Shown piece by piece: positions 1-41,345 of a stretch of 64,000 nt of DNA. The stretch is from Gemmatimonadales bacterium (GTDB taxonomy: Bacteria; Gemmatimonadota; Gemmatimonadetes; Gemmatimonadales; JACORV01). The position numbers and the translations under genes were made by a program. Below the pieces are notes generated by a model, which saw nothing but the letters and a program-made list of their open reading frames with translations, made no database searches and was not told where the DNA came from. The stretch lies in NCBI GenBank assembly GCA_049513575.1, contig JBEKVZ010000002.1:462186-526185 (forward strand), written 5' to 3'. Every line of letters starts with the position of its first letter. Position 1 is the first letter of the stretch.

Positions 1-342
1 AGCGCGTTCAAGCGGCCCTCCGAGGTGAAGCTCAACGAGGAAGAGTGCCTCCTCGCCCAGGGGGTGCTCTGCCTGGGAGCCGCCACCCGTGGCGGGTGCG
101 AGGCGCCCTGCATCAAGGGGAACATGCCGTGCACCGGCTGCTTCGGGCCCACCAGCCGGGTGAAGGACCAGGGCGCGAAGGCGTTGTCGGCGATCGCATC
201 CATGGTGGAGAGCAACGACGGCGCCGAGATCGAGCGTATCCTGAGCTCCATCCCCGACCCCGTCGGCACGTTGTACCGCTACTCGCTGCCAGCCTCGCTG
301 TTGCGCCGCAGGCGTCCGGCGCCTGTCGCGACCAAGGGGTGA
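1..342 (+). CDS. mvhG: [NiFe]-hydrogenase small subunit, MvhG/VhuG-like (3' part; begins before window)
   Basis: Frame open from base 1; CLLAQGVLCLGAATRGGCEAPCIKGNMPCTGCFGP is the C-terminal Fe-S Cys pattern of group 3 small subunits; large subunit and hyp genes lie downstream. Confidence 0.85.
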   Translation, partial: SAFKRPSEVKLNEEECLLAQGVLCLGAATRGGCEAPCIKGNMPCTGCFGPTSRVKDQGAKALSAIASMVESNDGAEIERILSSIPDPVGTLYRYSLPASLLRRRRPAPVATKG

Positions 343-346
343 GGAC

Positions 347-2233
347 GTGCTGAAGTCGATCGCGCTCCGGCTGATGTCGAGCTTCCTGGTGATCATCGTG
401 ATCATCAGCGCGATCTTCAGCTATGTGGGGATCCGTTTCATCGAGAACCGGGTCGTCACCGAAGCGCAGAACCGGGTCGCGGAGTCGCTGATGGCGGCCG
501 GGGAGATCTACGGGAGCGAGCTGCACGGCGTCCAGCAAGTGACGCGCCTCACGGCCGACCGGATCTTTCTCAAGGACGCGCTCAGGAGCGGCCGCGCCGG
601 GCAGGCCGCCGCCGTGCTGGGCGCCGTGCTGCGGCAGGAGCACCTCGACATCCTGGTGGTGACGGACGCGGCGGGGCGGGTGGTCTGGCGCCCGGCGAAT
701 CCGTCGCGGGTGGGGGATGCGCGGGGCGCCGATCCGCTGCTCAAGAGCGTGCTGACCCGTCGCGAGTCTGTGGCCGCGACGCAGCTCCTCTCCATCGGCG
801 ACCTGCGCCGGGAGTGCCCCGGCCTCGCGGTGCACGAGTTCGGCCCGGACTCGGCGGCGATGATGCTCGCTGCGGCCGCGCCGATCGTGGACGCGGGCCG
901 GCTGCTCGGCGCGGTCTACGGCGCCGTGCTGCTCAACGGCCGCTCCGAGCTGGTGGACAGGATCAAGCACGGCGTGTTCGAGGACGCCCAGTACCAGGGC
1001 CGGCCGGTCGGGGCCGCCACGCTGTTCCTGCACGACCTCCGGATCGCGACCAACGTCCTCAACCCTGAAGGCTCCCGTGCTCTCGGCACGCGCGCCGAGC
1101 CGGACGTGTACCGGGCGGTGGTCCTGGAGGACCGCCGTTGGGTCGCCGGGACCCTCGCGGGCGGCGAGCGCTACATCGCCGCCTACCGTCCGCTCAGGAG
1201 CGTCACGGGCGCGAACGTCGGGATGCTGGGCGTGGGACTCCTCGAGGCCCCATACCTCGATCTCAGGCGGCGCTCGACGCTCGTGTTCCTCGCGATCACG
1301 CTGACCGGCGCTGTGCTCACGATCGGCCTCTCGTACGGCCTGTCGCAGTGGCTGTCAGTACCGCTGCGCGATCTGGTGGCGGCCTCGCACCGCCTGGCAC
1401 ACGGCGACCTGAGCGCGAAGGTCCCGACGCCGGCGGTGACGGAGATCGCCGAGCTCGCCGAGAGCTTCAACGTCATGGCGGACGCGCTGCGGGCCCGTGA
1501 CGAGAAGCTCCGCGACTTCACCCGCCGCAAGATCATGGAATCGGAGCGGCTGGCGGTGATCGGGCAGCTCGCGGCCGGCGTCGCGCACGAGCTGAACAAC
1601 CCGCTGCAGGGCATCGTCGCGTACTCGCACCTCCTGCGCGAGAAGCAGGCCGGGGGTGGCGGGAACGGCACGGACGGCTGGGTGGAGAAGATCGTCACGC
1701 AGGCGGACCGCTGCTCCTCGATCGTCCGGGGCCTGCTCGATTTCGCGCGCCCCCGCACGCCGGTGATGAAGCCCACCGCGATCAACGCGCTGGTCAGCGG
1801 CTGCATCGCGCTGGTGGAGGACCAGGCGCTCTTCCACAACATCACGGTCGAGCGGCACTTCGGTGCGGACGTGCCGGAGGTTGTGGCGGATCCGTCGCTG
1901 ATGCAGCAGGTCTTCATGAACCTGATCATCAACGCGGCGGAGGCGATGCCGGACGGCGGGCGGCTCGTGGTGACCACGCGCCGCGATGCCGCGGAAGGCA
2001 TGGTCGAAGTGGAGTTCGCGGACACCGGCCACGGCATCGCCGAGGCGGACCTCGAGCGCATCTTCGACCCGTTCTTCACGACGAAGGCGGTCGGGCACGG
2101 CACCGGGCTCGGCCTGGCGATCAGCTTCGGGATCGTCAAGGAGCACCGCGGCACCATTTCGGTCGAGAGCGAGGTGGGGAAGGGGACGACGTTCGACGTC
2201 CGCCTCCCCCTGCGCGACCGGACGGAGGGTTAG
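347..2233 (+). CDS. Membrane sensor histidine kinase (TM-Cache-like-TM-HAMP-HisKA-HATPase)
   Basis: Two hydrophobic helices; H-box VAHELNNPL; N-box NLIINA; DTGHGI, FDPFFTTK, GTGLGL. Confidence 0.92.
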   Translation: MLKSIALRLMSSFLVIIVIISAIFSYVGIRFIENRVVTEAQNRVAESLMAAGEIYGSELHGVQQVTRLTADRIFLKDALRSGRAGQAAAVLGAVLRQEHLDILVVTDAAGRVVWRPANPSRVGDARGADPLLKSVLTRRESVAATQLLSIGDLRRECPGLAVHEFGPDSAAMMLAAAAPIVDAGRLLGAVYGAVLLNGRSELVDRIKHGVFEDAQYQGRPVGAATLFLHDLRIATNVLNPEGSRALGTRAEPDVYRAVVLEDRRWVAGTLAGGERYIAAYRPLRSVTGANVGMLGVGLLEAPYLDLRRRSTLVFLAITLTGAVLTIGLSYGLSQWLSVPLRDLVAASHRLAHGDLSAKVPTPAVTEIAELAESFNVMADALRARDEKLRDFTRRKIMESERLAVIGQLAAGVAHELNNPLQGIVAYSHLLREKQAGGGGNGTDGWVEKIVTQADRCSSIVRGLLDFARPRTPVMKPTAINALVSGCIALVEDQALFHNITVERHFGADVPEVVADPSLMQQVFMNLIINAAEAMPDGGRLVVTTRRDAAEGMVEVEFADTGHGIAEADLERIFDPFFTTKAVGHGTGLGLAISFGIVKEHRGTISVESEVGKGTTFDVRLPLRDRTEG

Positions 2234-2238
2234 GAACG

Positions 2239-3399
2239 GTGGAGGGGAACGCGCGGATTCTGGTCGTCGACGACGAGGAGATCGTGCTCGACTCCTGCAC
2301 CGAGATCCTGCGGGGCGAGGGGTACCAGCTCGCGACCGCCGCGGACGGGGAGCGCGGGCTGGCGCTCGTGAAGGAGTTCCGTCCGGACATCGTGGTGGTG
2401 GACCTCAAGATGCCGGGGCTCTCCGGGTTCGACGTCCTCGCACGGCTCAAGGAGTCCGACCCCACGATCGTCACCATCGTCATCACGGGGTACGCCACGG
2501 TGAGCTCGGCGGTGGAGGCGATGAAGCACGGGGCGTACGACTTCCTCCCGAAGCCGTTCACGCCGGAGGAGTTCCGGCTGATCATCCGGCGCGCCGTGGA
2601 GAAGCGTTCCCTGACCTTCGAGGCCATGGCCTTGCGCCGCGAGCGCGACCTGCTGCGGGAGCACTTCGCGGCGATCGTCTCCCACGAGCTCAAGGCGCCG
2701 CTGGCGGCCATCCAGCAGAACATCTTCGTGCTCGAGCGCCAGCTGGCTGCGGCCGCGACGCCGGACCAGCGCGAGCGGCTGGCGCGGGTGAAGGCCCGGA
2801 TGGCGGACTTGATCCAGATGGTGGACACCTGGCGGCATGGCGTGTCGATCGACATGGACGCCATCAAGGCGCGCCAGGTCCCCGTCTCGGTGCGGGTCCC
2901 GATCGACAAGGCGGTGGAGAGCGCGCTGGTCTACGCCACGCGCAAGGCGGTCACCATCGAGGTGACGGTGCCGGAGCCGGCGCCCCGGGTGCTGGGCGAC
3001 CAGGGGACGCTGACCGAGGCGGTGGTCAACATCCTCGGCAACGCCGTCAAGTTCTCGCGCGACGGCGGCCGGATCGAGGTGACCGCCGACGTGCGGGACG
3101 ATGACGTCCGCATCGCGGTCACCGATCACGGCGTGGGCATCGCGCCGGAGGAGCTGCCGCACCTGTTCGAAGCGTTCTACACCCAGCCCGGTGTCGGCGG
3201 CGAGCGCGGCTCGGGCCTCGGCCTGGCCGTGAGTCGGCGGATCGTCGAGGCGCACGGCGGGGGCATCACGGTACAGAGCACGCCGGGCCAGGGGAGCACG
3301 TTCGTGATCACGCTGCCCGCGCTCGGCGACGATGCACCCGGCGGGGAACGCCGGGAGGCTGAACCTCTGGCAGCATCTGCAAAGGACGGTCCCAGATGA
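2239..3399 (+). CDS. Hybrid REC-histidine kinase (receiver + HisKA + HATPase), cytoplasmic
   Basis: N-terminal ILVVDDE..VVVDLKMP..ITG..LPKPF; H-box VSHELKAPL; NILGNAVKF, DHGVGI, GSGLGL. Confidence 0.9.
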   Translation: MEGNARILVVDDEEIVLDSCTEILRGEGYQLATAADGERGLALVKEFRPDIVVVDLKMPGLSGFDVLARLKESDPTIVTIVITGYATVSSAVEAMKHGAYDFLPKPFTPEEFRLIIRRAVEKRSLTFEAMALRRERDLLREHFAAIVSHELKAPLAAIQQNIFVLERQLAAAATPDQRERLARVKARMADLIQMVDTWRHGVSIDMDAIKARQVPVSVRVPIDKAVESALVYATRKAVTIEVTVPEPAPRVLGDQGTLTEAVVNILGNAVKFSRDGGRIEVTADVRDDDVRIAVTDHGVGIAPEELPHLFEAFYTQPGVGGERGSGLGLAVSRRIVEAHGGGITVQSTPGQGSTFVITLPALGDDAPGGERREAEPLAASAKDGPR

Positions 3400-3818
3400 G
3401 CGAGCGCAAGCGGTTGATGATCATCGACGACGACCCCGATTTCGTCTCGGGGATCCGCGCCATTCTGGACGGCGCCGGCTACGACACCGAGGTCGCCTAC
3501 AACCCGAAGGATGGGTTCGCGGCGCTGAAGGCGCGGTCCCACGACCTGCTCCTCCTCGACATCATGATGGGGCGGGGCGCCGAGGGCGTCATGATGGCGC
3601 GCAAGCTCCGCAAGGACCCGGCGCTCAAGGATCTCCCGATCCTGATCATCACGGGGATCCGCGAGCAGATCGCGTTCATGTTCCCGGGCCAGGCGGTGCA
3701 CCCGAACTTCGTGGCGCTCAACGAGCTGATCGAAAAGCCCGTGGAGCCGGACCTCCTGCTGGAACGGGTGAAGGCGCTGCTCAAGGCGGCCGAGTCGCGC
3801 GGCCAGCCGGTGTCCTGA
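3396..3818 (+). CDS. Single-domain response regulator (REC)
   Basis: IIDDDPD, LLLLDIMM, IITG, IEKPV; ATGA overlap with upstream gene. Confidence 0.9.
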   Translation: MSERKRLMIIDDDPDFVSGIRAILDGAGYDTEVAYNPKDGFAALKARSHDLLLLDIMMGRGAEGVMMARKLRKDPALKDLPILIITGIREQIAFMFPGQAVHPNFVALNELIEKPVEPDLLLERVKALLKAAESRGQPVS

Positions 3819-3840
3819 CGACTGAGGAGGGGGAGGGCGT

Positions 3841-4404
3841 ATGTGGACGAAGCCCTCGTTCGCGGACGAGATCTCGAACGAGATGTACGCGACGGGCACG
3901 CGCGGCCTGAACTGCTGCATTCAGTGCGCGACCTGCTCGTCGGCCTGCCCGGCGGTCGAGTTCATGGATCACACGCCGCGCCGGCTCATCGGCATGATCA
4001 ACGCCGGCCTGCGGGACGACGTGCTGGCGAGCAACACGTTCTGGGTGTGCGCCTCCTGCTACGCCTGCTCGGGGGTCTGCCCGAAGGGGATCAAGCCGTC
4101 GGAGCTGATGTACGTGCTGAAGCGGTACTCGATCTGGAAGAACAAGTACCGCGATGACCTCGTGGGGCCGGAGTTCTCGCGGCGCTTCGTGAAGACCATC
4201 ATGCGCACGGGGAAGTCGTACGAGCCCGGGTACGCCCCGGCGTTCATCTTCGAGGGCGGCGTCCAGGGCATGCTGCGCGAGATGCAGTTCGGCATGAAGC
4301 TCATGGCCAAGGGCCGCATGCCGCTCATGCCGTCCCGCGTGAAGCGGGTGGACAACTTCCGGGCGATGCTGAGCCGGATCGTGCCACTGGAAGGCATCGA
4401 ATGA
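3841..4404 (+). CDS. hdrC: Heterodisulfide reductase subunit C-like 2x[4Fe-4S] protein
   Basis: CIQCATCSSACP and CASCYACSGVCP ferredoxin motifs; directly upstream of hdrB; SD GAGGAGG. Confidence 0.88.
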   Translation: MWTKPSFADEISNEMYATGTRGLNCCIQCATCSSACPAVEFMDHTPRRLIGMINAGLRDDVLASNTFWVCASCYACSGVCPKGIKPSELMYVLKRYSIWKNKYRDDLVGPEFSRRFVKTIMRTGKSYEPGYAPAFIFEGGVQGMLREMQFGMKLMAKGRMPLMPSRVKRVDNFRAMLSRIVPLEGIE

Positions 4405-5324
4405 AACGGTACGCGTACTTCCCCGGGTGCTCCGCGGAAACCGTGTCCGCGAGCTACCACCTCTCGACCATCGAGACGGGGGCCAAGCTCGGCGTGCAGT
4501 TCGAGGAGATCGAGGACTGGAACTGCTGCGGGGCCACGCCCTACACCAACATCGACGAGCTGCTGGCGCACACGCTGTGCGCCCGCAACCTCGCCATCGC
4601 CGAGCGGACCGGCCTCGACGTGGTGGCCCCGTGCAACGCGTGCTTCAAGAACCTCTACCACGCGAACCAGGACCTCAAGACGGATGCGGACCTCGCGGAG
4701 CACATGAACTTCGCGCTGGAGGCCGACGGCCTGCGGTACGGCGGGACCATCGGGGTCCACCATCTCATCCACGTGTTCGTGCGGGACGTGGGCCTCGATG
4801 CGATCAAGCAGAAGGTGACGCGCCCCCTCAAGGGCCTGAAGGTGGCGGCGTACTACGGTTGCCAGCTGGTGCGGCCCGACCGGCACGACGGCTTCGATCC
4901 GGCGGGTCCGCGGTACTTCGAGGATCTGATCGCGGTCCTCGGGGCGAAGCCGGTGGAGTTCGCGCACCGGCTCCGGTGCTGCGGCGCCTCCCTGATGATC
5001 GGGCACCGGCGCGCGGCCCTGGCCATGGTGCGCGAGCTGCTGCGCGGCGCCGCGCAGGCCCAGGCGGACGTGATCGCCACGGCCTGCCCGCTGTGCCAGC
5101 TGAACCTGGAGTGCTACCAGAAGGACGTGAACCGCGAGTTCGGGACCGCCTACGAGATCCCCGTACTCTACTTCACGCAGCTGATGGGATTGGCGATGGG
5201 GATCAGCGCGAAGAAGCTGGGCATCGGCACCGAGATGATATCGCCGAAGGCGGTGCTGGAGTGTGTGGCGCGCAAGCCGGCCGCAGCCGCGCCGGCCCAC
5301 AACGTGAAGGTGGGACAACCATGA
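4401..5324 (+). CDS. hdrB: Heterodisulfide reductase subunit B-like (two CCG domains)
   Basis: YAYFPGC, WNCCGA, PCNAC, YYGCQLVRP, RCCGA, TACPLCQ motifs. Confidence 0.92.
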   Translation: MKRYAYFPGCSAETVSASYHLSTIETGAKLGVQFEEIEDWNCCGATPYTNIDELLAHTLCARNLAIAERTGLDVVAPCNACFKNLYHANQDLKTDADLAEHMNFALEADGLRYGGTIGVHHLIHVFVRDVGLDAIKQKVTRPLKGLKVAAYYGCQLVRPDRHDGFDPAGPRYFEDLIAVLGAKPVEFAHRLRCCGASLMIGHRRAALAMVRELLRGAAQAQADVIATACPLCQLNLECYQKDVNREFGTAYEIPVLYFTQLMGLAMGISAKKLGIGTEMISPKAVLECVARKPAAAAPAHNVKVGQP

Positions 5325-6814
5325 CGCAGCCGACGACACCGGCCGCCCCGGCGGGGCGCCGGATCAGCATCGATCCGATTACCCGCCTCGAAGGTCACGG
5401 CAAGATCGAGATCTTCCTCGACGCGAAGGGCGGCGTCAGCCGCGCCTTCATGCAGGTCCCGGAGCTGCGCGGGTTCGAGAAGTTCGCGCAGGGGCGTCTG
5501 GCGGAGGACATGCCCCAGATCACGTCGCGCATCTGCGGCGTGTGCCCGACCGCGCACCACATGGCGGCGACCAAGGCCCTCGACGACCTGTACAAGGTCG
5601 AGCCGCCCCCTGCGGGGAAGGCGATCCGCGAGCTGGTCTACAACGCCTTCATGGCCGAAGACCACGCGCTGCACTTCTACTTCCTGGGCGGGCCGGACTT
5701 CGTCGTCGGCCCCATGGCGCCCGCGGCCGAGCGCAACATCCTGGGCGTCATCGCCAAGGTCGGCGTGGAGACGGGCAAGACGGTCATCGCGATGCGGCGG
5801 CGGCTGCGCGAGCTGATCGCGCTGGTCGGCGGCAAGGTCATCCATCCGGTGCTGGGCCTCCCCGGCGGCGTCGCCAAGCCGATCAAGCCCGAGGAGCAGA
5901 AGCAGTTCCAGGCTCTCGCCGCCGACGCGGTCGGCTTCGCCCAGTTCACGCTCAAGGTGTTCGAGGACGTGGTCCTCAAGAACGCCGAGTACGTGAAGCT
6001 CATCACATCCGACACCTTCACGCACCGGACCCACTACATGGGGATGGTGGACGAGAAGGACCGGCCCAACTTCTACGACGGGAAGCTTAAGGTCGTCTCG
6101 CCCGAGGGCAAAGAGATCGCGAAGTTCGCGGCGCAGCAGTACCTCGAGTACATCGCCGAGCACGTGGAGCCGTGGAGCTACATGAAGTTCTGCTACCTCA
6201 AGCCGGTGGGGTGGAACGGCTTCACGGAAGGTGCGGAGAGCGGGATCTACGCGGTGGCGCCGCTGGCGCGGCTCAACGTCGCTTCGGGGATGGCGACGCC
6301 GCTGGCGCAGCAGGCCTACGAGAAGATGTACCAGGTCCTGGGCGGCAAGCCGGTGCACCACACCCTCGGCAATCACTGGGCGCGGGTCATCGAGCTGCTG
6401 TACGCCACGGAGCGGTTGCAGGAGATCGCCGCCGACCCAGTGCTGGTGGACTCCAACGTCCGCACGCTGCCCACGGCCACGCCGCAGGAAGGCATCGGGG
6501 TCGTGGAGGCGCCGCGCGGGACGCTCATCCACCACTACACGACCGACGAGCGGGGCGTGATCAAGACGGCCAACCTCATCGTCGCGACGCAAGGCAACGC
6601 GGCGCGCATGGCGATGGGGGTGGAGAAGGCAGCTAGGGGACTGATCTCCGGCAAGGAGGTCTCCGACGGCCTGCTCAACATGGTCGAGATGGCCTTCCGC
6701 GCCTACGACCCCTGCATGGGGTGCGCGACGCACAGCCTCCTCGGCGAGATGCCGCTCGAGGTCGCCATTCGCGACGCGGATGGGCAGCTGATCCGCGTCG
6801 TGCGCCGACCCTAG
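5321..6814 (+). CDS. mvhA: [NiFe]-hydrogenase large subunit, group 3c (MvhA/VhuA-like)
   Basis: IDPITRLEGHG; L1 RICGVCPTAH; L2 RAYDPCMGCATH followed by a cleavable C-terminal extension; start ATG at 5321 overlaps hdrB stop. Confidence 0.93.
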   Translation: MTQPTTPAAPAGRRISIDPITRLEGHGKIEIFLDAKGGVSRAFMQVPELRGFEKFAQGRLAEDMPQITSRICGVCPTAHHMAATKALDDLYKVEPPPAGKAIRELVYNAFMAEDHALHFYFLGGPDFVVGPMAPAAERNILGVIAKVGVETGKTVIAMRRRLRELIALVGGKVIHPVLGLPGGVAKPIKPEEQKQFQALAADAVGFAQFTLKVFEDVVLKNAEYVKLITSDTFTHRTHYMGMVDEKDRPNFYDGKLKVVSPEGKEIAKFAAQQYLEYIAEHVEPWSYMKFCYLKPVGWNGFTEGAESGIYAVAPLARLNVASGMATPLAQQAYEKMYQVLGGKPVHHTLGNHWARVIELLYATERLQEIAADPVLVDSNVRTLPTATPQEGIGVVEAPRGTLIHHYTTDERGVIKTANLIVATQGNAARMAMGVEKAARGLISGKEVSDGLLNMVEMAFRAYDPCMGCATHSLLGEMPLEVAIRDADGQLIRVVRRP

Positions 6815-6824
6815 CGGGAAGGCG

Positions 6825-7358
6825 TTGGAAGGAGGCGCACGCGTGATGGGGCCGCCCCAGCGGATCGTCGTCGTCGGACTGGGGAATCCGCTCCTCACCG
6901 ATGACGCCGTCGGACTCCGCGCTGCCGCGCTGCTGGCCGAGCGGCTGGCCCAGGCGCCGGTGGACGTGCTCCAGAGCTCCTGGGGCGGGCTGCGCTTCAT
7001 CGACCTCCTCGCCGGGTACGAGCGCGCCATCATCGTGGACGCCATCGAATGGCGGCGCGGCCCGCCGGGGACCGTCTACCGGCTCACTCCCGACGCGGCC
7101 ATCCCGACCCTGCGGGCTGTTTCCTACCACGACGTGAGCCTCGGCACCGCCCTGGCGCTGGGGCGCTCGCTCGACATTCCGCTCCCGGTTGAGACCGTGT
7201 TTTTCGCCGTCGAGGCCCAGGACACGCACACGTTCGGGGAGGCGCTGACGCCCGCGGTCGAGGCGGCGCTCCCGGAGGTGGTACGGCGCGTGGAGGCACA
7301 GCTTATGCAATGGAACCTCCAGTGGGGGGATTCATGCACGAAGCCAGCATTGCGCTGA
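6825..7358 (+). CDS. Hydrogenase maturation protease (peptidase A31); start may be 6843/6846
   Basis: VVGLGNPLLTDDAVG, IVDA, SYHD motifs; follows large subunit. Confidence 0.88.
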   Translation: MEGGARVMGPPQRIVVVGLGNPLLTDDAVGLRAAALLAERLAQAPVDVLQSSWGGLRFIDLLAGYERAIIVDAIEWRRGPPGTVYRLTPDAAIPTLRAVSYHDVSLGTALALGRSLDIPLPVETVFFAVEAQDTHTFGEALTPAVEAALPEVVRRVEAQLMQWNLQWGDSCTKPALR

Positions 7359-7702
7359 ACCTGATCGAGGCGGTCGAGCAGCGTCTGGAGTCGCAGCCGG
7401 GGCATGTCACGGCGATCCACGTGCGCGTGGGAGAGCTGGCGGGCGTCTCCACCGAGGCGCTCGACTTCGCCTTCCAGTGCCTGTCCGCCGGCACGCCGCT
7501 GGCGAGCGCACGGCTCGTCTTCGAGGTGATCCCGCTGACGATGACGTGCGACGCCTGCGGCCGGACGAGCGGGGTCGAGGACCTGGTGTTTCGCTGCCCG
7601 GCGTGCGGCTCGGAGAACACGCGCATCTCCACGGGGCGCGAGCTCGAGGTGCGCACGCTGGAGCTCGCCGAGGAACCCGAGGTGGCCCATGCATCAAATT
7701 GA
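7334..7702 (+). CDS. hypA: Hydrogenase nickel incorporation protein HypA
   Basis: MHEASIA N-terminus; CDAC and CPAC zinc-binding motifs. Confidence 0.93.
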   Translation: MHEASIALNLIEAVEQRLESQPGHVTAIHVRVGELAGVSTEALDFAFQCLSAGTPLASARLVFEVIPLTMTCDACGRTSGVEDLVFRCPACGSENTRISTGRELEVRTLELAEEPEVAHASN

Positions 7703-8381
7703 CGTCAAGGCGGGGCTGCTCGAGCCCAACGACGCCATCGCCCGGGAGAACCGGGAGTTTCTCGCGGCGCACGGGATCTACGCCGTGGACATCATGAGCG
7801 CGCCTGGCTCGGGGAAGACGTCCCTGCTCGAGTGGATGATTCCCATCTTCGCGGAGCGCTACCGCCTTGCGGTGGTCGAGGGCGACATCGTCGGCAACGC
7901 GGACAAGGAGCGCCTCGACGGGTTCGGCGTGCCGGTCCACCAGATCAACACGGGCGCGGCGTGCCATCTCGACGCGCACATGGTGCATCCGACCCTGCAC
8001 CACGTGGCCGAGGAAGGGGCCGAGGTTCTGTTGATCGAGAACGTCGGCAACCTGGTGTGCCCCGCCGAGTTCGACCTCGGCGAGGACGACGTGATCATGC
8101 TGCTGTCGGTCACCGAGGGACACGACAAGCCGAAGAAGTACCCGCTGATGTTCCGGCGGGCGGGCCTGGTGGCGATCAACAAGCTGGATCTGCTGGACCG
8201 CACCAACTTCGACCTCCCGGGCGCGATCGCCGCGGCGCGCGACGTCCATCCCGGGGTGGCGGTGCTGACGACGTCGTGCCGCACCGGCGAGGGCATCGAC
8301 GACGTGGTCGCGTGGCTGGAGTGGCGCATCGCGGCAAAGCGGGCGGCGATGCAGCACCTGCAGGTGGGCGCCTCGCCGTGA
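7689..8381 (+). CDS. hypB: Hydrogenase nickel incorporation GTPase HypB
   Basis: SAPGSGKTS, CHLDAHM, IENVGNLVCPA, INKLD. Confidence 0.95.
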   Translation: MHQIDVKAGLLEPNDAIARENREFLAAHGIYAVDIMSAPGSGKTSLLEWMIPIFAERYRLAVVEGDIVGNADKERLDGFGVPVHQINTGAACHLDAHMVHPTLHHVAEEGAEVLLIENVGNLVCPAEFDLGEDDVIMLLSVTEGHDKPKKYPLMFRRAGLVAINKLDLLDRTNFDLPGAIAAARDVHPGVAVLTTSCRTGEGIDDVVAWLEWRIAAKRAAMQHLQVGASP

Positions 8382-10690
8382 GCGCAACGCTCGCGCAGGC
8401 GACAGGGCGGCGCGTCGCGGCGCGCATCACCGTACGGGGAGCGGTACAGGGGACGGGGTTCCGTCCCTTTGTTTTCCGCCTCGCGCAGGCGCTCGGCCTC
8501 GCGGGGTCGGTGCGGAACACGCCGTTCGGCGTGCTCATCGTCGCCGAGGGGGAGGCGGAGGCGGTGGCGGCGTTCCTCCGGCGGCTGCCGCCGGAAGCCC
8601 CGCCGGCCGCGGTCCTGCGCGGCGTGGAGGTCGAGGAGATCGCGCCGGACGGCGCCGAGCGGTTCGAGATCGAGGCGAGCGACCTGGCGGGTGAGCTGGT
8701 GGTCGCGATGCTCCCGGATCTGGCGACCTGCCCCGAGTGCCGTCAGGAGCTGTTCGACCCCGACGATCGCCGGTTCAACTACCCATTCCTCAACTGCACG
8801 GCCTGCGGGCCGCGGCTCTCCATCATCGAGGGGCTGCCGTACGACCGGCCGCTGACCGCGATGCGGCAATTCCGGATGTGTCCGGACTGCGCCGCCGAGT
8901 ACGGGGACCCGCGCGACCGCCGGTTCCACGCGCAGCCGGTCGCATGTCCACGGTGCGGGCCTCGCTTCTGGTTCGAGGGGCGCGACCCCACGGCGGGACC
9001 GTACGCGACCTATCCCCTCGAAGCGGCGGTCGCGATGCTGCGGTCGGGGCGGATCCTCGCCGTCAAGGGGATCGGCGGTTACCAGCTCCTCGTGGACGCG
9101 CGGGACGACGCCGCCGTGGCGCGCCTCAGGGCCCGCAAGGGGAGGGAGGCGAAGCCGCTCGCGGTGATGTTCCCGAGCCTCGAAACGCTGCGCCGCGTCG
9201 CGCGGGTCGGGGACGAGGAGGCGCGGCTCCTGGACTCCGCGTCGGCACCCATCCTCCTCCTGCCCCTGATCGACCGCAGCGCGATCTCCGCGGAGACGGC
9301 GCCGGGGCTTCATTCGGTGGGCGCGATGCTGCCCTACTCGCCGCTCCACCACCTGCTGCTGGCCCGGCTGAACTTCCCCGTCGTCTGCACGAGCGGGAAC
9401 TTCTCCGAGGAGCCGATGGCGATCACGGCCGAGGACGCCCGGGAGCGCCTGGGGCCCATCGCCGACGCGTTCCTGCACCATGACCGCCCGATCGTGCGGC
9501 ATGTGGACGACTCGGTCGCGCGGGTCGTGGACGGCAGCCTGCTCGTGCTGCGCCGCGCGCGCGGGTTCGCGCCGCTGCCGGTGGAGCTCACGGCGCATCT
9601 CCCGACGGTGCGGGCCCTGGGCGGCCACCTCAAGAACACGGTCGCGTGGAGCCACGGCAACCAGATCATCGCGAGCCAGCACATCGGCGACCTCGACCAC
9701 CCGCTCTCGCTCGAGGCGCTGCAGCGCACCGTGGCCGACTACGAGCGGCTCTACGGCCTGGGCCCCGTGGCCGTGGCGTGCGACCTCCATCCCGACTACG
9801 CGACCACCCGGCTGGCCGAAGCCAGCGGGTTGGAGGTGATTCGCGTGCAGCACCATCACGCGCACGTCGCGGCGGTGATGGCCGAGCACGATCTCGAAGG
9901 CGAAGTGCTGGGCGTCGCGTGGGACGGGACGGGACTCGGGACCGACGGCACGATCTGGGGCGGCGAGTTCCTGCGGGCCTCGGTCGTCGGCTACCGCCGC
10001 GTCGCGCGGTTCCTCCCCTTCTGGCTGCCCGGCGGCGAGGCGTCCGCGCGCCAGCCCTGGCGGTCGGCGCTCGGTGTGCTGCACGAGATCCACGGCGAGG
10101 GGCTGTGGGACCTCGACGTTCCGTCGGTGGAGCACGCCCGGCCGCGGCGGTCCATCCTCGAGGCTCTGTTCCGGCCGGGCGGCTACTCCGCGCGCACGTC
10201 GAGCGCGGGCCGGCTGTACGACGCGGTCGCCTCCCTGCTCGGGCTCCGCCAGGAGTCGAGCTACGAAGCCCAGGCAGCGATGCAGCTCGAGCAGATGGCG
10301 GAGCCGGGGGCGTCGGCGGGCTACCCCTTCCGTCTGCTCGAGCCGGTGGTCGCCGCGGAAAACGCGCCGGTCGAGGTGGACTGGCGTCCCGCCGTCACGG
10401 GCCTCCTCGCGGACCTCCGCCGCGGCGCGACACCTTCTGCCGCGGCCGGCCGGTTCCACCTCACGCTCGCCCAGATGATCGCCGCCGTGGCCGAGTGGCA
10501 CGGGCTCGCTCGCGTGGTGCTGTCGGGCGGGTGCTTCCAGAACGCCGCGCTCGTGACGCTGGCCGCGCGGGACCTCCGGGCGCGGGGCTTCCAGGTCTTC
10601 ACGGCCAGCCGCATCCCGCCGAACGACGGTGGGCTCGCGGTAGGGCAGGCGCTCGTGGCCGCCCATACCCTGCTCGAGCGGAGGCGCTAG
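8378..10690 (+). CDS. hypF: Carbamoyltransferase HypF
   Basis: Acylphosphatase [11 protein letters not shown]; zinc fingers CPEC/CTACGP/CPDC/CPRC; VQHHHAH; [11 protein letters not shown]. Confidence 0.95.
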
Positions 10691-39701: not shown

Positions 39702-41345
39702 ATGCCCCGCGGCGTCCGCAACCAGCTGGCAGTGTACCTTGGCGACCTCTTCGCCGTGGCCGGCGCCGCGTTGCTCGCCGCGGACCTGCTCCCCGCGTTG
39801 AGACATGGCGTCTCGCCCGGTGCGGTTGCCGACCTGGTGCTGGTGGCGACGGGACTGTTTGCACACCGGGTCGCCCTGGCGTCGCACCGCGAGGGGCCCG
39901 TGGTAGCTCTCGCCTTTCTGGTCATCGGGTCCCTGATCGTTGCGTGGCTCACGGAGCGGTGGTGGGTGCCGGCCGGTGCGGGCGCCGTGGTGGTGGCGGC
40001 GGCGCCACAATTCCTGCCGGCGAAGCGGGCCGTGGTCTGGAGCCTGGCCGGCGCGCTGATGGGTCTCGCGGGGATTGTGGCCGGGAGGGCGACCGCGGTG
40101 ATCGCGGCCGCCACCGTCGCCGCGGTAGGCGTGGTGTCGTTCCGGCTTGCGGCGGGACTGCGCGGGGCGGCGTCGCGCACCGCTGCCGAGCTGGAGCAGG
40201 CCCTCGAGCTGGAGCGGCTGCGGTCGGCGGAGATCCTGGCGCGGGTCAACCGGCTGGAGACTCGCGCGCAGGACGGTGCGAGGCGCCCGGTGCTGCGTGC
40301 GGTCTTGAGCCGGCGGCTGAGCGTGGTGCAGGCCGTGGCGTGGACCATCGCGCGGGACCTCAGGCGGGCGCTCTCGCTGGGCGCGGCGGAGGTCTCGACC
40401 GCGGCGAGCCGGAACGCCGCCCGGGCTGAGCAACTCGCGCACCTGGCTGCGGGCGGGGAGGCCCGGGAGCGCGAGACCACCCTCTCGCTCGTCTGGCCCC
40501 GCGTTCTCGACCATGTCGGCACCGCAGTCGGGGAGTCGCACCATTTCGAGGTATCGTTCCCGGATACGCTCCCTCCGATCGTGGGCGGGACCGAGGAATG
40601 GTCGCAGGTGCTCGCTGCCCTGGTGGAGAACGCGCTCGAGGCCATGCCGCGCGGCGGGGTCGTGGCCGCGAGCGCGGAGATCAGCGACCGGCCCGGGTTC
40701 GCACGGATCGTGGTCCAGGACAACGGTCCCGGGATCCCGCCCGCGCTGCTGCCCCACGTCCTGGAGCCGTTCTACACGTCGCGAGCCGAGCAGGGGGCCG
40801 AGGGGCTTGGCCTCGCCACGGTCGCTTCGCTCGTCGAGGCGCTGGACGGCGAAGTGCACGTGACGTCGTCGAGCGCGGGCACCAGAATCGAGATCGAGGT
40901 CCCGTTCTACGCGGCTGCCGCCCGCCCCGAGGCAGCGGCGCCGATGCAGCTTGAAGGAACGGTGCTGGTCGCGGAAGACGACAAGGACTTCCGCCGTAGC
41001 CTGGTCCGCCTGCTGGAGAGCTTCGGCTTGGAGACGCTCGACGTGGACAGCGGCACCGTGGCGCTGGCCCATCTGAGGGCTCGGCCCGAGCGGTTTCGCG
41101 CCGCGATCCTCGATCTGGTGATGGAGGGGACACCGGTGGCGGAAGTCGTTCTCGCGATCCGCGAAAAGCGGCCGGCGTTTCCGTGCCTGCTGATATCGGG
41201 GCTGACCACGGCGCGCCTGGTGGACAGCCTGCTGGCGCTGGGAGGCGTGCGCTTCCTGAAGAAGCCGTTCACGCGAGAGGAGTTGTTCTACACTCTCCGA
41301 GACCTGTTCACGGTCGAAACGCCGGCCGCCGGCGCGAAGGCATAG
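39702..41345 (+). CDS. Membrane hybrid kinase-like protein (TMs + degenerate HisKA + HATPase + REC)
   Basis: Multiple TMs; ENALEAM, DNGPGI, LEPFYT, GLGL; REC VAEDD..ILDLVM..ISG..KKPF; H-box reads IARDLRRAL. Confidence 0.85.
   Translation: MPRGVRNQLAVYLGDLFAVAGAALLAADLLPALRHGVSPGAVADLVLVATGLFAHRVALASHREGPVVALAFLVIGSLIVAWLTERWWVPAGAGAVVVAAAPQFLPAKRAVVWSLAGALMGLAGIVAGRATAVIAAATVAAVGVVSFRLAAGLRGAASRTAAELEQALELERLRSAEILARVNRLETRAQDGARRPVLRAVLSRRLSVVQAVAWTIARDLRRALSLGAAEVSTAASRNAARAEQLAHLAAGGEARERETTLSLVWPRVLDHVGTAVGESHHFEVSFPDTLPPIVGGTEEWSQVLAALVENALEAMPRGGVVAASAEISDRPGFARIVVQDNGPGIPPALLPHVLEPFYTSRAEQGAEGLGLATVASLVEALDGEVHVTSSSAGTRIEIEVPFYAAAARPEAAAPMQLEGTVLVAEDDKDFRRSLVRLLESFGLETLDVDSGTVALAHLRARPERFRAAILDLVMEGTPVAEVVLAIREKRPAFPCLLISGLTTARLVDSLLALGGVRFLKKPFTREELFYTLRDLFTVETPAAGAKA

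Follow-up and report, generated by a model that had tools for sequence, protein, structure and literature searches.

The stretch of DNA analysed here, referred to as the window, comprises 64,000 nucleotides of a Gemmatimonadales genome (3.6 Mb, 70% G+C) and corresponds to positions 462,186-526,185 of contig JBEKVZ010000002.1. Near its 5′ end, three signalling genes lie among the structural genes of a cluster of the heterodisulfide reductase (Hdr) and [NiFe] hydrogenase (Mvh) type. HK1 (347-2233, start codon GTG at 347) encodes a membrane sensor histidine kinase, RecHK (2239-3399) a soluble receiver-controlled histidine kinase and lone REC (3396-3818) a single-domain response regulator of 140 amino acids. 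The trio is preceded by the 3′ part of mvhG (1-342, stop codon TGA at 340-342) and followed by hdrC (3841-4404, start codon ATG) and hdrB (4401-5324), all on the + strand. The gaps amount to 4 nt between mvhG and HK1, 5 nt between HK1 and RecHK and 22 nt between REC and hdrC. RecHK and REC overlap in an ATGA at 3396-3399 (−4 nt), an overlap type found in 22 of 75 loci, and hdrC and hdrB share an ATGA as well, their 4-nt overlap recurring in 67 of 70 loci. Comparative analysis of these genes revealed that the block HK1-RecHK-REC-hdrC-hdrB is widely conserved, which suggests phosphorelay control, still unproven, of an electron-splitting system through protein contacts.

Of the neighbouring genes, mvhG, recognized as an open reading frame (ORF) with a VhuG-like match in NCBIfam, encodes a group 3c-type [NiFe] hydrogenase small subunit; the full gene, read from the genome, starts 644 nt ahead of the window, and Oxidored_q6 is found in the orthologous loci. 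HdrC is a heterodisulfide-reductase-type subunit with two [4Fe-4S] clusters (Fer4 dicluster families in Pfam; HdrC/QmoC-like in NCBIfam, below cut-off), and HdrB carries two CCG domains (two Pfam CCG matches; TIGR03288 at 232 bits, below cut-off). The [NiFe] hydrogenase large subunit is encoded by mvhA (5321-6814, + strand; NiFeSe_Hases in Pfam, VhuA-like at 367 bits in NCBIfam), whose checked ATG start overlaps the hdrB stop codon. A HycI-family hydrogenase maturation protease (6825-7358, + strand; Pfam HycI) follows and is succeeded by hypA and hypB, the protease, HypA and HypB being mapped in relatives by tblastn; the ORFs after hypB, up to ~13126, were read by eye, with no domain scan, as hypF, hypC, hypD and hypE. 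Upstream of the window, on the same strand, lie in order an HdrD-like gene, etfB, etfA, a membrane HdrD-like gene, hdrA and mvhD, which leads to mvhG. All six subunit types of MvhADG-HdrABC (NiFe large and small subunits, MvhD, HdrA, HdrB with CCG domains and HdrC with 2×4Fe-4S) are encoded around the trio. The Mvh and Hdr proteins do not reach the NCBIfam equivalog cut-offs of the methanogen enzymes, and a CoM-S-S-CoB reductase function is not implied. A scan of window positions 1-8000 detected no promoter-like site and no excess of terminator-like sites.

HK1 was delineated from its ORF, Pfam matches and hydrophobic segments. It consists of a transmembrane segment, a double-PDC/Cache sensor, a second transmembrane segment, HAMP, HisKA (H414) and HATPase_c, the Pfam matches being sCache_3_3 (with weaker Cache matches), HAMP, HisKA and HATPase_c. 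Hydrophobic segments at ~1-34 and 310-332 bracket a sensor of ~275 residues. The AlphaFold2 (AF2) model of residues 33-310 reached a predicted local distance difference test (pLDDT) score of 92.8 and shows a confident double-PDC/Cache fold, for which Foldseek returned the sensors vpHK1S-Z8, LuxQ and PctA at a template-modelling score of about 0.55, a comparison that yields no ligand name. For one PDC module of the sensor (window 443-1276), the structural match of best identity was the formate-binding sCache domain PDB 8py0 (22% identity, root-mean-square deviation 2.6-3.0); this modelled likeness is a lead towards a formate-type ligand, not evidence for one. The kinase core is AtoS/ZraS-like (NCBIfam, below cut-off), and the catalytic residues H414, N529 and D559/G561 are invariant in 68 of 68 orthologues.

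In RecHK, Pfam places a receiver (Response_reg, residues 7-116), HisKA (140-197) and HATPase_c (253-361), with no transmembrane segment and no other sensory domain. D55, T83, K105, H149 and N268 are all kept in 76 of 76 orthologues. Its receiver domain is NtrC1/AtoC/NtrX-like and its kinase core PhoR/TorS/WalK-like, while comparison with solved structures returned generic matches alone. The H-box, N, G1 and G2 boxes of HisKA-type phosphotransfer and the receiver pocket are all present in the trio, with Pfam matches above cut-off, and the phospho-sites and ATP-lid boxes of HK1 and RecHK are all invariant among orthologues.

The lone REC matches Response_reg only (Pfam), has no hydrophobic segment and measures 133-143 residues across 80 loci. 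Its pocket is intact (D11-D13, D55, T86 and K114-P115), D55 being kept in 79 of 81 sequences; the two sequences with Asn at the phospho-accepting position, L048 and L061 (lone receiver gene at 9001-9420), come from loci in which both kinases are present. The fold is of the generic receiver kind; no solved structure exceeds 29% identity to it, and PhoB- and DivK-type receivers come closest. The nearest curated model, of the DVU0259/DivK-like family, scores 61 bits against a cut-off of 160. Relative to PleD and CheY, a conserved insertion of ~6 residues follows helix 4, and this is the sole internal loop of low confidence in the AF2 model (pLDDT 83). At residue 111 (window 3726-3728), three before K114, at least 90% of the 81 family members have Leu. 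The receiver-only architecture and the phospho-pocket agree with CheY- and DivK-like proteins, whereas the aromatic switch (Tyr/Phe) before the Lys is lacking. No curated family for HK1, RecHK or REC was found in NCBIfam above cut-off. Checks against the ORF list, Pfam and the junction sequences upheld the ORF positions, domains and gaps (4, 5, −4 and 22) given for the trio in the original prediction. Its statement that all phospho-accepting His and Asp residues are intact proved correct both here and across 68-81 orthologous clusters, and Pfam and NCBIfam scans agreed with it that none of the three proteins carries a helix-turn-helix or other output domain.

The distribution of the block was studied in two scans. 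Species-representative genomes were searched with a receiver alignment as seed, and the best 80 of 265 relatives were mapped; metagenome contigs were searched with an HdrC alignment, so that these loci were not selected on the receiver. Taxon names are the record titles of metagenome-assembled genomes, a few of which may be mis-binned; one contig with the block, L104, bears the label Anaerolinea thermophila. By record label, the 80 mapped loci belong to Chloroflexota (42), Gemmatimonadota (14), Verrucomicrobiota (11), Actinomycetota (5), Acidobacteriota (1) and Zixibacteria (1), with six unlabelled. Adjacency of REC and hdrC, of RecHK and REC and of hdrC and hdrB was each observed in 79 of the 80 genome loci, and that of HK1 and RecHK in 78; the lone exception to REC-hdrC adjacency, L046, is a contig that ends after REC. 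Among the HdrC-seeded metagenome loci with enough upstream DNA, REC lies directly 5′ of hdrC in 78 of 78. Altogether, the five-gene block recurs in 157 of 158 testable loci from at least six phyla (Gemmatimonadota, Chloroflexota, Verrucomicrobiota, Actinomycetota, Acidobacteriota and Zixibacteria), and the REC-hdrC junction is stricter than all others save hdrC-hdrB. By these counts, the REC-hdrC arrangement is far beyond chance. Cluster genes are split into adjacent frames in several long-read assemblies, namely G007 (L019, L036), L098, L086 and L059; since neighbours of near-identical sequence are intact, assembly indels seem a better account of the breaks than decay.

The context of the block differs between phyla. 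The order mvhG-[block]-mvhA was found in 11 Gemmatimonadota loci, one Acidobacteriota-labelled record and one unlabelled record. In Chloroflexota the block stands between the membrane HdrD-like gene and hdrA, while in Verrucomicrobiota it heads the cluster and is followed by etfBA. The Acidimicrobiia carry it separate from mvh, and apart from or divergent to the etf and hdrA genes. Across the mapped loci, the invariant partner of the trio is hdrC-hdrB, not the hydrogenase. The location between mvhG and hdrC that the original prediction had emphasized holds for the window and for Gemmatimonadota-type loci but not in general, since the positions of mvh, hdrA and etf are phylum-specific and other phyla place the block elsewhere beside hdrCB. 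The cross-genome search for gene order that it had proposed revealed conservation of the trio with hdrC(-hdrB) in at least six phyla and so no recent random insertion. Homologous operons without the trio, which it had taken as a sign against a functional link, are confined to one nested clade in which the kinases were lost secondarily and REC still stands beside hdrC, as described below.

No DNA-binding regulator was detected in the neighbourhoods examined, apart from a MarR-family gene in one Gemmatimonadota lineage. This gene, between the membrane HdrD-like gene and hdrA (L026:518-1162, L027 and L028), is the sole DNA-binding gene seen within any version of the cluster. A conserved DNA-binding regulator adjoining the block was also sought in the flanks of Verrucomicrobiota and Acidimicrobiia and rejected, the flanking genes being unrelated housekeeping genes.

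To compare conservation, median identities were calculated against the window's proteins with close relatives left out. REC reached 70%, followed by MvhD (62%), MvhA (60%), HdrB (59%), HdrA (57%), RecHK (54%), HdrC (52%), HK1 (49%), MvhG (47%), Etf (47%) and membrane HdrD (42%). In the trio-bearing loci of the HdrC-seeded set as well, identity was higher for REC than for HdrC, the median difference being 6.6 points. Judged by these identities, no protein of the cluster is better conserved than the lone REC. Columns conserved at 90% or more make up 49% of REC and 27-35% of the other four block proteins; in REC they cover the acidic pocket, the beta3-alpha3 loop MGRGAEG, ARK 68-70 and the segment from T86 to K114-P115, including the insertion. 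In a 50% clustering of 1.8 billion proteins, the REC family was represented by a single full-length sequence (68% identity), the next relatives falling to 45% or below, and REC was fused to an output domain in none of its near relatives. On this clustering, the lone REC family is a discrete one.

The evolution of the trio was traced in 40 related genomes, eight of which encode a full-length HK1 orthologue. In seven of these (six of the same genus and one of a sister genus), the complete trio occupies exactly the slot between mvhG and hdrC; the remaining one, G038, has a paralogous copy instead. One further genome carries RecHK and REC only in this slot and three carry REC only, with a gap of ~500 bp, while others encode a different Mvh/Hdr type and no receiver. 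In this comparison, what stays constant beside hdrC is the receiver rather than the kinases. On a tree of concatenated HdrC and HdrB from 119 loci, two changes suffice to explain the trio states. The REC-only loci group together in a single clade (support 100), placed eleven nodes deep among trio-bearing Gemmatimonadales, and the RecHK+REC type, without HK1, represents a separate loss. The tree indicates that the trio is ancestral and that the REC-only state reflects secondary kinase loss with retention of REC, since the clade is nested among trio-bearing lineages. The REC-only loci also lack etf and the membrane HdrD-like gene beside hdrA. In this clade, REC has drifted further than HdrC (59-64% versus 76-79% identity) with every pocket residue kept. 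The ratio of nonsynonymous to synonymous substitution rates is 0.28 for REC in the REC-only clade versus 0.21 in trio-bearing relatives (HdrC, 0.23 versus 0.18), values by which REC is under purifying selection there.

The regions upstream of the cluster genes were searched for promoters. A sigma-54-type promoter precedes the HdrD-like gene in L015 (G001) and L019 (G007), with the sequence TGGCATATCCCTTGCT, and in L017 (G008), with the sequence TGGCCTATTCCTTGCT; the promoter TGGCATATCCCTTGCT also precedes hdrA in L142:1835, L145:521 and L148:849. The carriers are some Gemmatimonadales, including the REC-only clade, and one Anaerolinea-like contig. A scan ahead of the cluster in the window's own genome found no such promoter, and it is absent from most other phyla too. 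General sigma-54 dependence of the cluster was rejected, as scores stayed at background in 37 regions upstream of HdrD2 and 64 upstream of HK1. Two further observations concern DNA ahead of the window. The 255-bp region before the first cluster gene contains, ~8225 to 8115 nt before window position 1, four copies of TGTGCG/CGCACA (genome average 0.4 per kb) as two inverted repeats, which sit after a terminator-like hairpin of the preceding gene and may constitute an operator. A perfect sigma-54 consensus, TGGCACGGCCCTTGCA, lies 11005 nt before window position 1, ahead of a citrate-synthase-like gene. Elsewhere in the window, the ORF at 39702-41345 (547 residues) combines HATPase_c with a C-terminal receiver and has no HisKA match in Pfam.

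Taken together, our results point to a conserved phosphorelay, complete in itself, that accompanies hdrC-hdrB in Hdr/Mvh/Etf clusters and whose REC acts by protein contact, most likely on the Hdr module, a proposal to which we give slightly less than an even chance. HK1 would sense an extracytoplasmic ligand through its double-Cache domain and phosphorylate the NtrC-like receiver domain of RecHK. The kinase core of RecHK would be switched on by this phosphorylation, as in LvrB, and then phosphorylate D55 of the lone REC. The order HK1, RecHK, REC is suggested by class matches (the AtoS/ZraS core of HK1 pairs with the AtoC/NtrC1 receiver of RecHK, and the PhoR/WalK core of RecHK with the PhoB/DivK type of REC), by the RecHK/REC ATGA overlap and by the natural RecHK+REC variant. 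A receiver without an output domain would act through protein contact, here presumably in a phosphorylation-dependent way via the conserved helix4/strand5 face and the insertion loop (residues 96-109). The likeliest target would be the Hdr module, either HdrC/HdrB or the Hdr-Mvh-Etf assembly, so that the relay would tune the activity or assembly of an electron-bifurcating system rather than bind DNA. The choice of the Hdr module draws on the adjacency of REC and hdrC through rearrangements, the retention of REC after kinase loss, the conservation of the output face and, weakly, the covariation of REC with HdrC: in partial Mantel tests, residual covariation was 0.34 for REC and HdrC and none for the kinases and HdrC, with 0.60 for the positive control, HdrC and HdrB. 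A bolder version, rather unlikely in our judgement, makes the lone receiver a regulatory subunit of bacterial Hdr-Mvh-Etf complexes that is switched by phosphorylation and through which an extracellular cue, sensed by the double-Cache kinase, would gate flavin-based electron bifurcation at the protein level; such gating could operate via the docking or the activity of HdrBC. To our knowledge, protein-level gating by a phosphorelay has been described for no electron-bifurcating enzyme.

Several observations weigh against an Hdr-directed relay of this kind. The REC-HdrC covariation is a weak lead, confounded by adjacency and phylogeny, and adjacency alone could produce it. The covariation of REC is stronger with HK1 (0.37) than with RecHK (0.16), which misfits a strictly linear cascade and makes direct transfer of phosphate from HK1 to the lone REC conceivable as an alternative step. 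No REC-HdrC fusion was found in the best 120 matches of a REC+HdrC query. In the REC-only clade, the kinase-docking helix and the alpha4-beta5 loop of REC are both altered, so part of the conservation of REC stems from the kinases and not from Hdr. Paralogous modules at 30-41% identity stand alone or near a group 3b hydrogenase without Hdr, and a tie to Hdr is therefore no inherent property of the module type. In other Gemmatimonadota, the paralogous order is REC-RecHK-REC-[four group-3b hydrogenase genes]-HK1 (L020:7528-15529, which is G038; L112:5580-13601; L113), the bracketed genes encoding a Fer4_22 protein, an FAD/NAD protein and the small and large subunits. In Bryobacteraceae, REC-RecHK-REC-HK1 (Cache/HAMP) has no redox enzyme alongside (L114:6298-10479; L115). 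The genome with the group-3b paralogous set holds Mvh/Hdr genes elsewhere, with no receiver there. Finally, the two relays of this architecture studied so far, Lvr and Phc, end at unlinked partners, so the lack of a neighbouring regulator gene proves little.

This last point leads to a plausible alternative, if not the one we would back, in which the final output is gene regulation, exerted via a partner whose gene lies elsewhere, and the place of the signalling genes in the operon serves autoregulation and co-expression alone. RecHK or HK1 could phosphorylate an unlinked regulator or anti-sigma-type protein, or phosphorylated REC could bind a transcription factor or RNA polymerase component. 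There are precedents: the gene of LvrC, the partner of LvrB, is unlinked, and it took phosphotransfer profiling to find this partner, and PhcS-PhcR-PhcQ, of the same three-part design without a DNA-binding domain, acts on the LysR regulator PhcA. The AtoS/ZraS-like core of HK1 belongs with kinases that normally serve sigma-54 activators, for which the window's own genome has about nine genes, none of them near the cluster, and the promoter TGGCATATCCCTTGCT stands ahead of the cluster in some Gemmatimonadales relatives; the existence of paralogous modules alone or beside another enzyme is compatible with such a route as well. However, sigma-54 promoters are at background level generally and none precedes the cluster in the window's genome. 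Moreover, distant phyla share ~70% REC identity with no co-located regulator, so that the partner would have to be universal or repeatedly recruited, and the adjacency of REC to hdrC is the strictest except for hdrC-hdrB and outlasts the loss of both kinases.

An improbable variant is that the lone REC has no target and is a mere phosphate sink or buffer that drains HK1 and RecHK, the true output being the phosphorylation state of RecHK or another regulator. Single-domain receivers are known as sinks or relays (PMC8578825), and REC does covary with HK1 and has no output domain. However, a sink needs a kinase-docking face alone, yet the alpha4-beta5 face and the family-specific insertion are near-invariant across phyla; REC is the most conserved protein of the cluster and persists under purifying selection where no cognate kinase is left to drain. 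It is scarcely credible that the trio belongs to an unrelated two-component system which entered the operon by accident or as a selfish element and is functionally unconnected to Hdr/Mvh: the mvhG-hdrC slot is unusual for regulatory genes and some relatives lack the kinases, but this explanation is already contradicted by the recurrence of the block and by the HdrCB tree, on which the trio is ancestral; the catalytic residues, too, are conserved throughout.

Hdr-Mvh-type complexes of bacteria occur widely in soils, sediments and digesters, and the relay offers a handle on their substrate and regulation. The ligand of the sensor would show when the Hdr-Mvh system is used, and the target of the lone receiver would show how it is switched. 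Should the receiver act on the enzyme itself, an electron-bifurcating complex would for the first time be seen under the control of a two-component system that works through protein contact. Should it instead work via an unlinked factor, the system would be a widespread environmental addition to the small and newly understood class of Rec-controlled kinase relays (Lvr and Phc). A full-text literature search retrieved no description of the HK1-RecHK-REC-hdrC-hdrB block.

Among known systems, the closest in design is the Lvr relay of Leptospira, in which phosphorylation of the LvrB receiver by the upstream kinase LvrA frees the catalytic domains and starts autophosphorylation (PMC13269768), and LvrC, a Rec-anti-sigma protein, is encoded apart from LvrB (PMC13269768, PMC5863495). 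Both pathways would run from a sensor kinase to a soluble Rec-DHp-CA kinase and on to a third receiver protein, the first two proteins lacking a DNA-binding domain. RecHK has the domain order, solubility and phospho-sites of LvrB, and the likeness is one of architecture alone. Among the best 25 NCBIfam matches, the LvrB model hits HK1 rather than RecHK (118 bits, cut-off 500) and the LvrA model hits RecHK (112 bits against a cut-off of 1200), and no LvrB chain appears among the PDB matches of RecHK at E≤1e-20. Unlike the terminal protein here, a bare receiver encoded in the operon beside hdrC, LvrC carries an anti-sigma (Bergerat) output domain and is unlinked, and Lvr has no tie to a metabolic enzyme. 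The Ralstonia operon phcB-phcS-phcR-phcQ acts on PhcA without changing phcA expression, its output mechanism being post-transcriptional relative to PhcA (PMC8578825). Compared by its published description, it shares the gene order of sensor kinase, receiver plus kinase and receiver-only protein and the lack of a DNA-binding domain. It differs in the length of the last component (336-337 residues for PhcQ versus 140 for the lone REC), in its target, a LysR regulator, and in its signal synthase, PhcB; no signal synthase/PhcB methyltransferase or LysR gene occurs in the clusters studied here.

On the enzyme side, the cluster encodes the same six subunit types as the MvhADG-HdrABC complex of methanogens, but it is bacterial and joined to etfAB and two HdrD-like CCG proteins. 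We know of no signalling genes inside methanogen Mvh/Hdr operons. Two-component systems dedicated to [NiFe] hydrogenase clusters are familiar from HoxBC-HoxJ-HoxA and HupUV-HupT-HupR, where a regulatory hydrogenase serves as H2 sensor and works with an NtrC-type DNA-binding regulator. Here, by contrast, sensing falls to a periplasmic double-Cache domain, and a DNA-binding protein is lacking; a regulatory (group 2b) hydrogenase and an NtrC-type regulator beside the kinase are absent from the window's cluster and from 160 related loci. Bare receivers that act via protein contact are exemplified by CheY-FliM, DivK-DivL/PleC and CpdR-ClpX. Like these, the lone REC consists of nothing but a receiver, has its phospho-pocket intact and must exert its output by contact with another protein; it departs from them in its low identity to solved receivers (at most 29%), in the Leu at the aromatic switch and in its ~6-residue insertion. 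A relay built from a Rec-controlled kinase and a terminal receiver is thus of a kind already known from Lvr and Phc; what is new is the bare 140-residue terminal receiver, its fixed coupling to hdrC-hdrB in many phyla and its top rank in conservation within the cluster.

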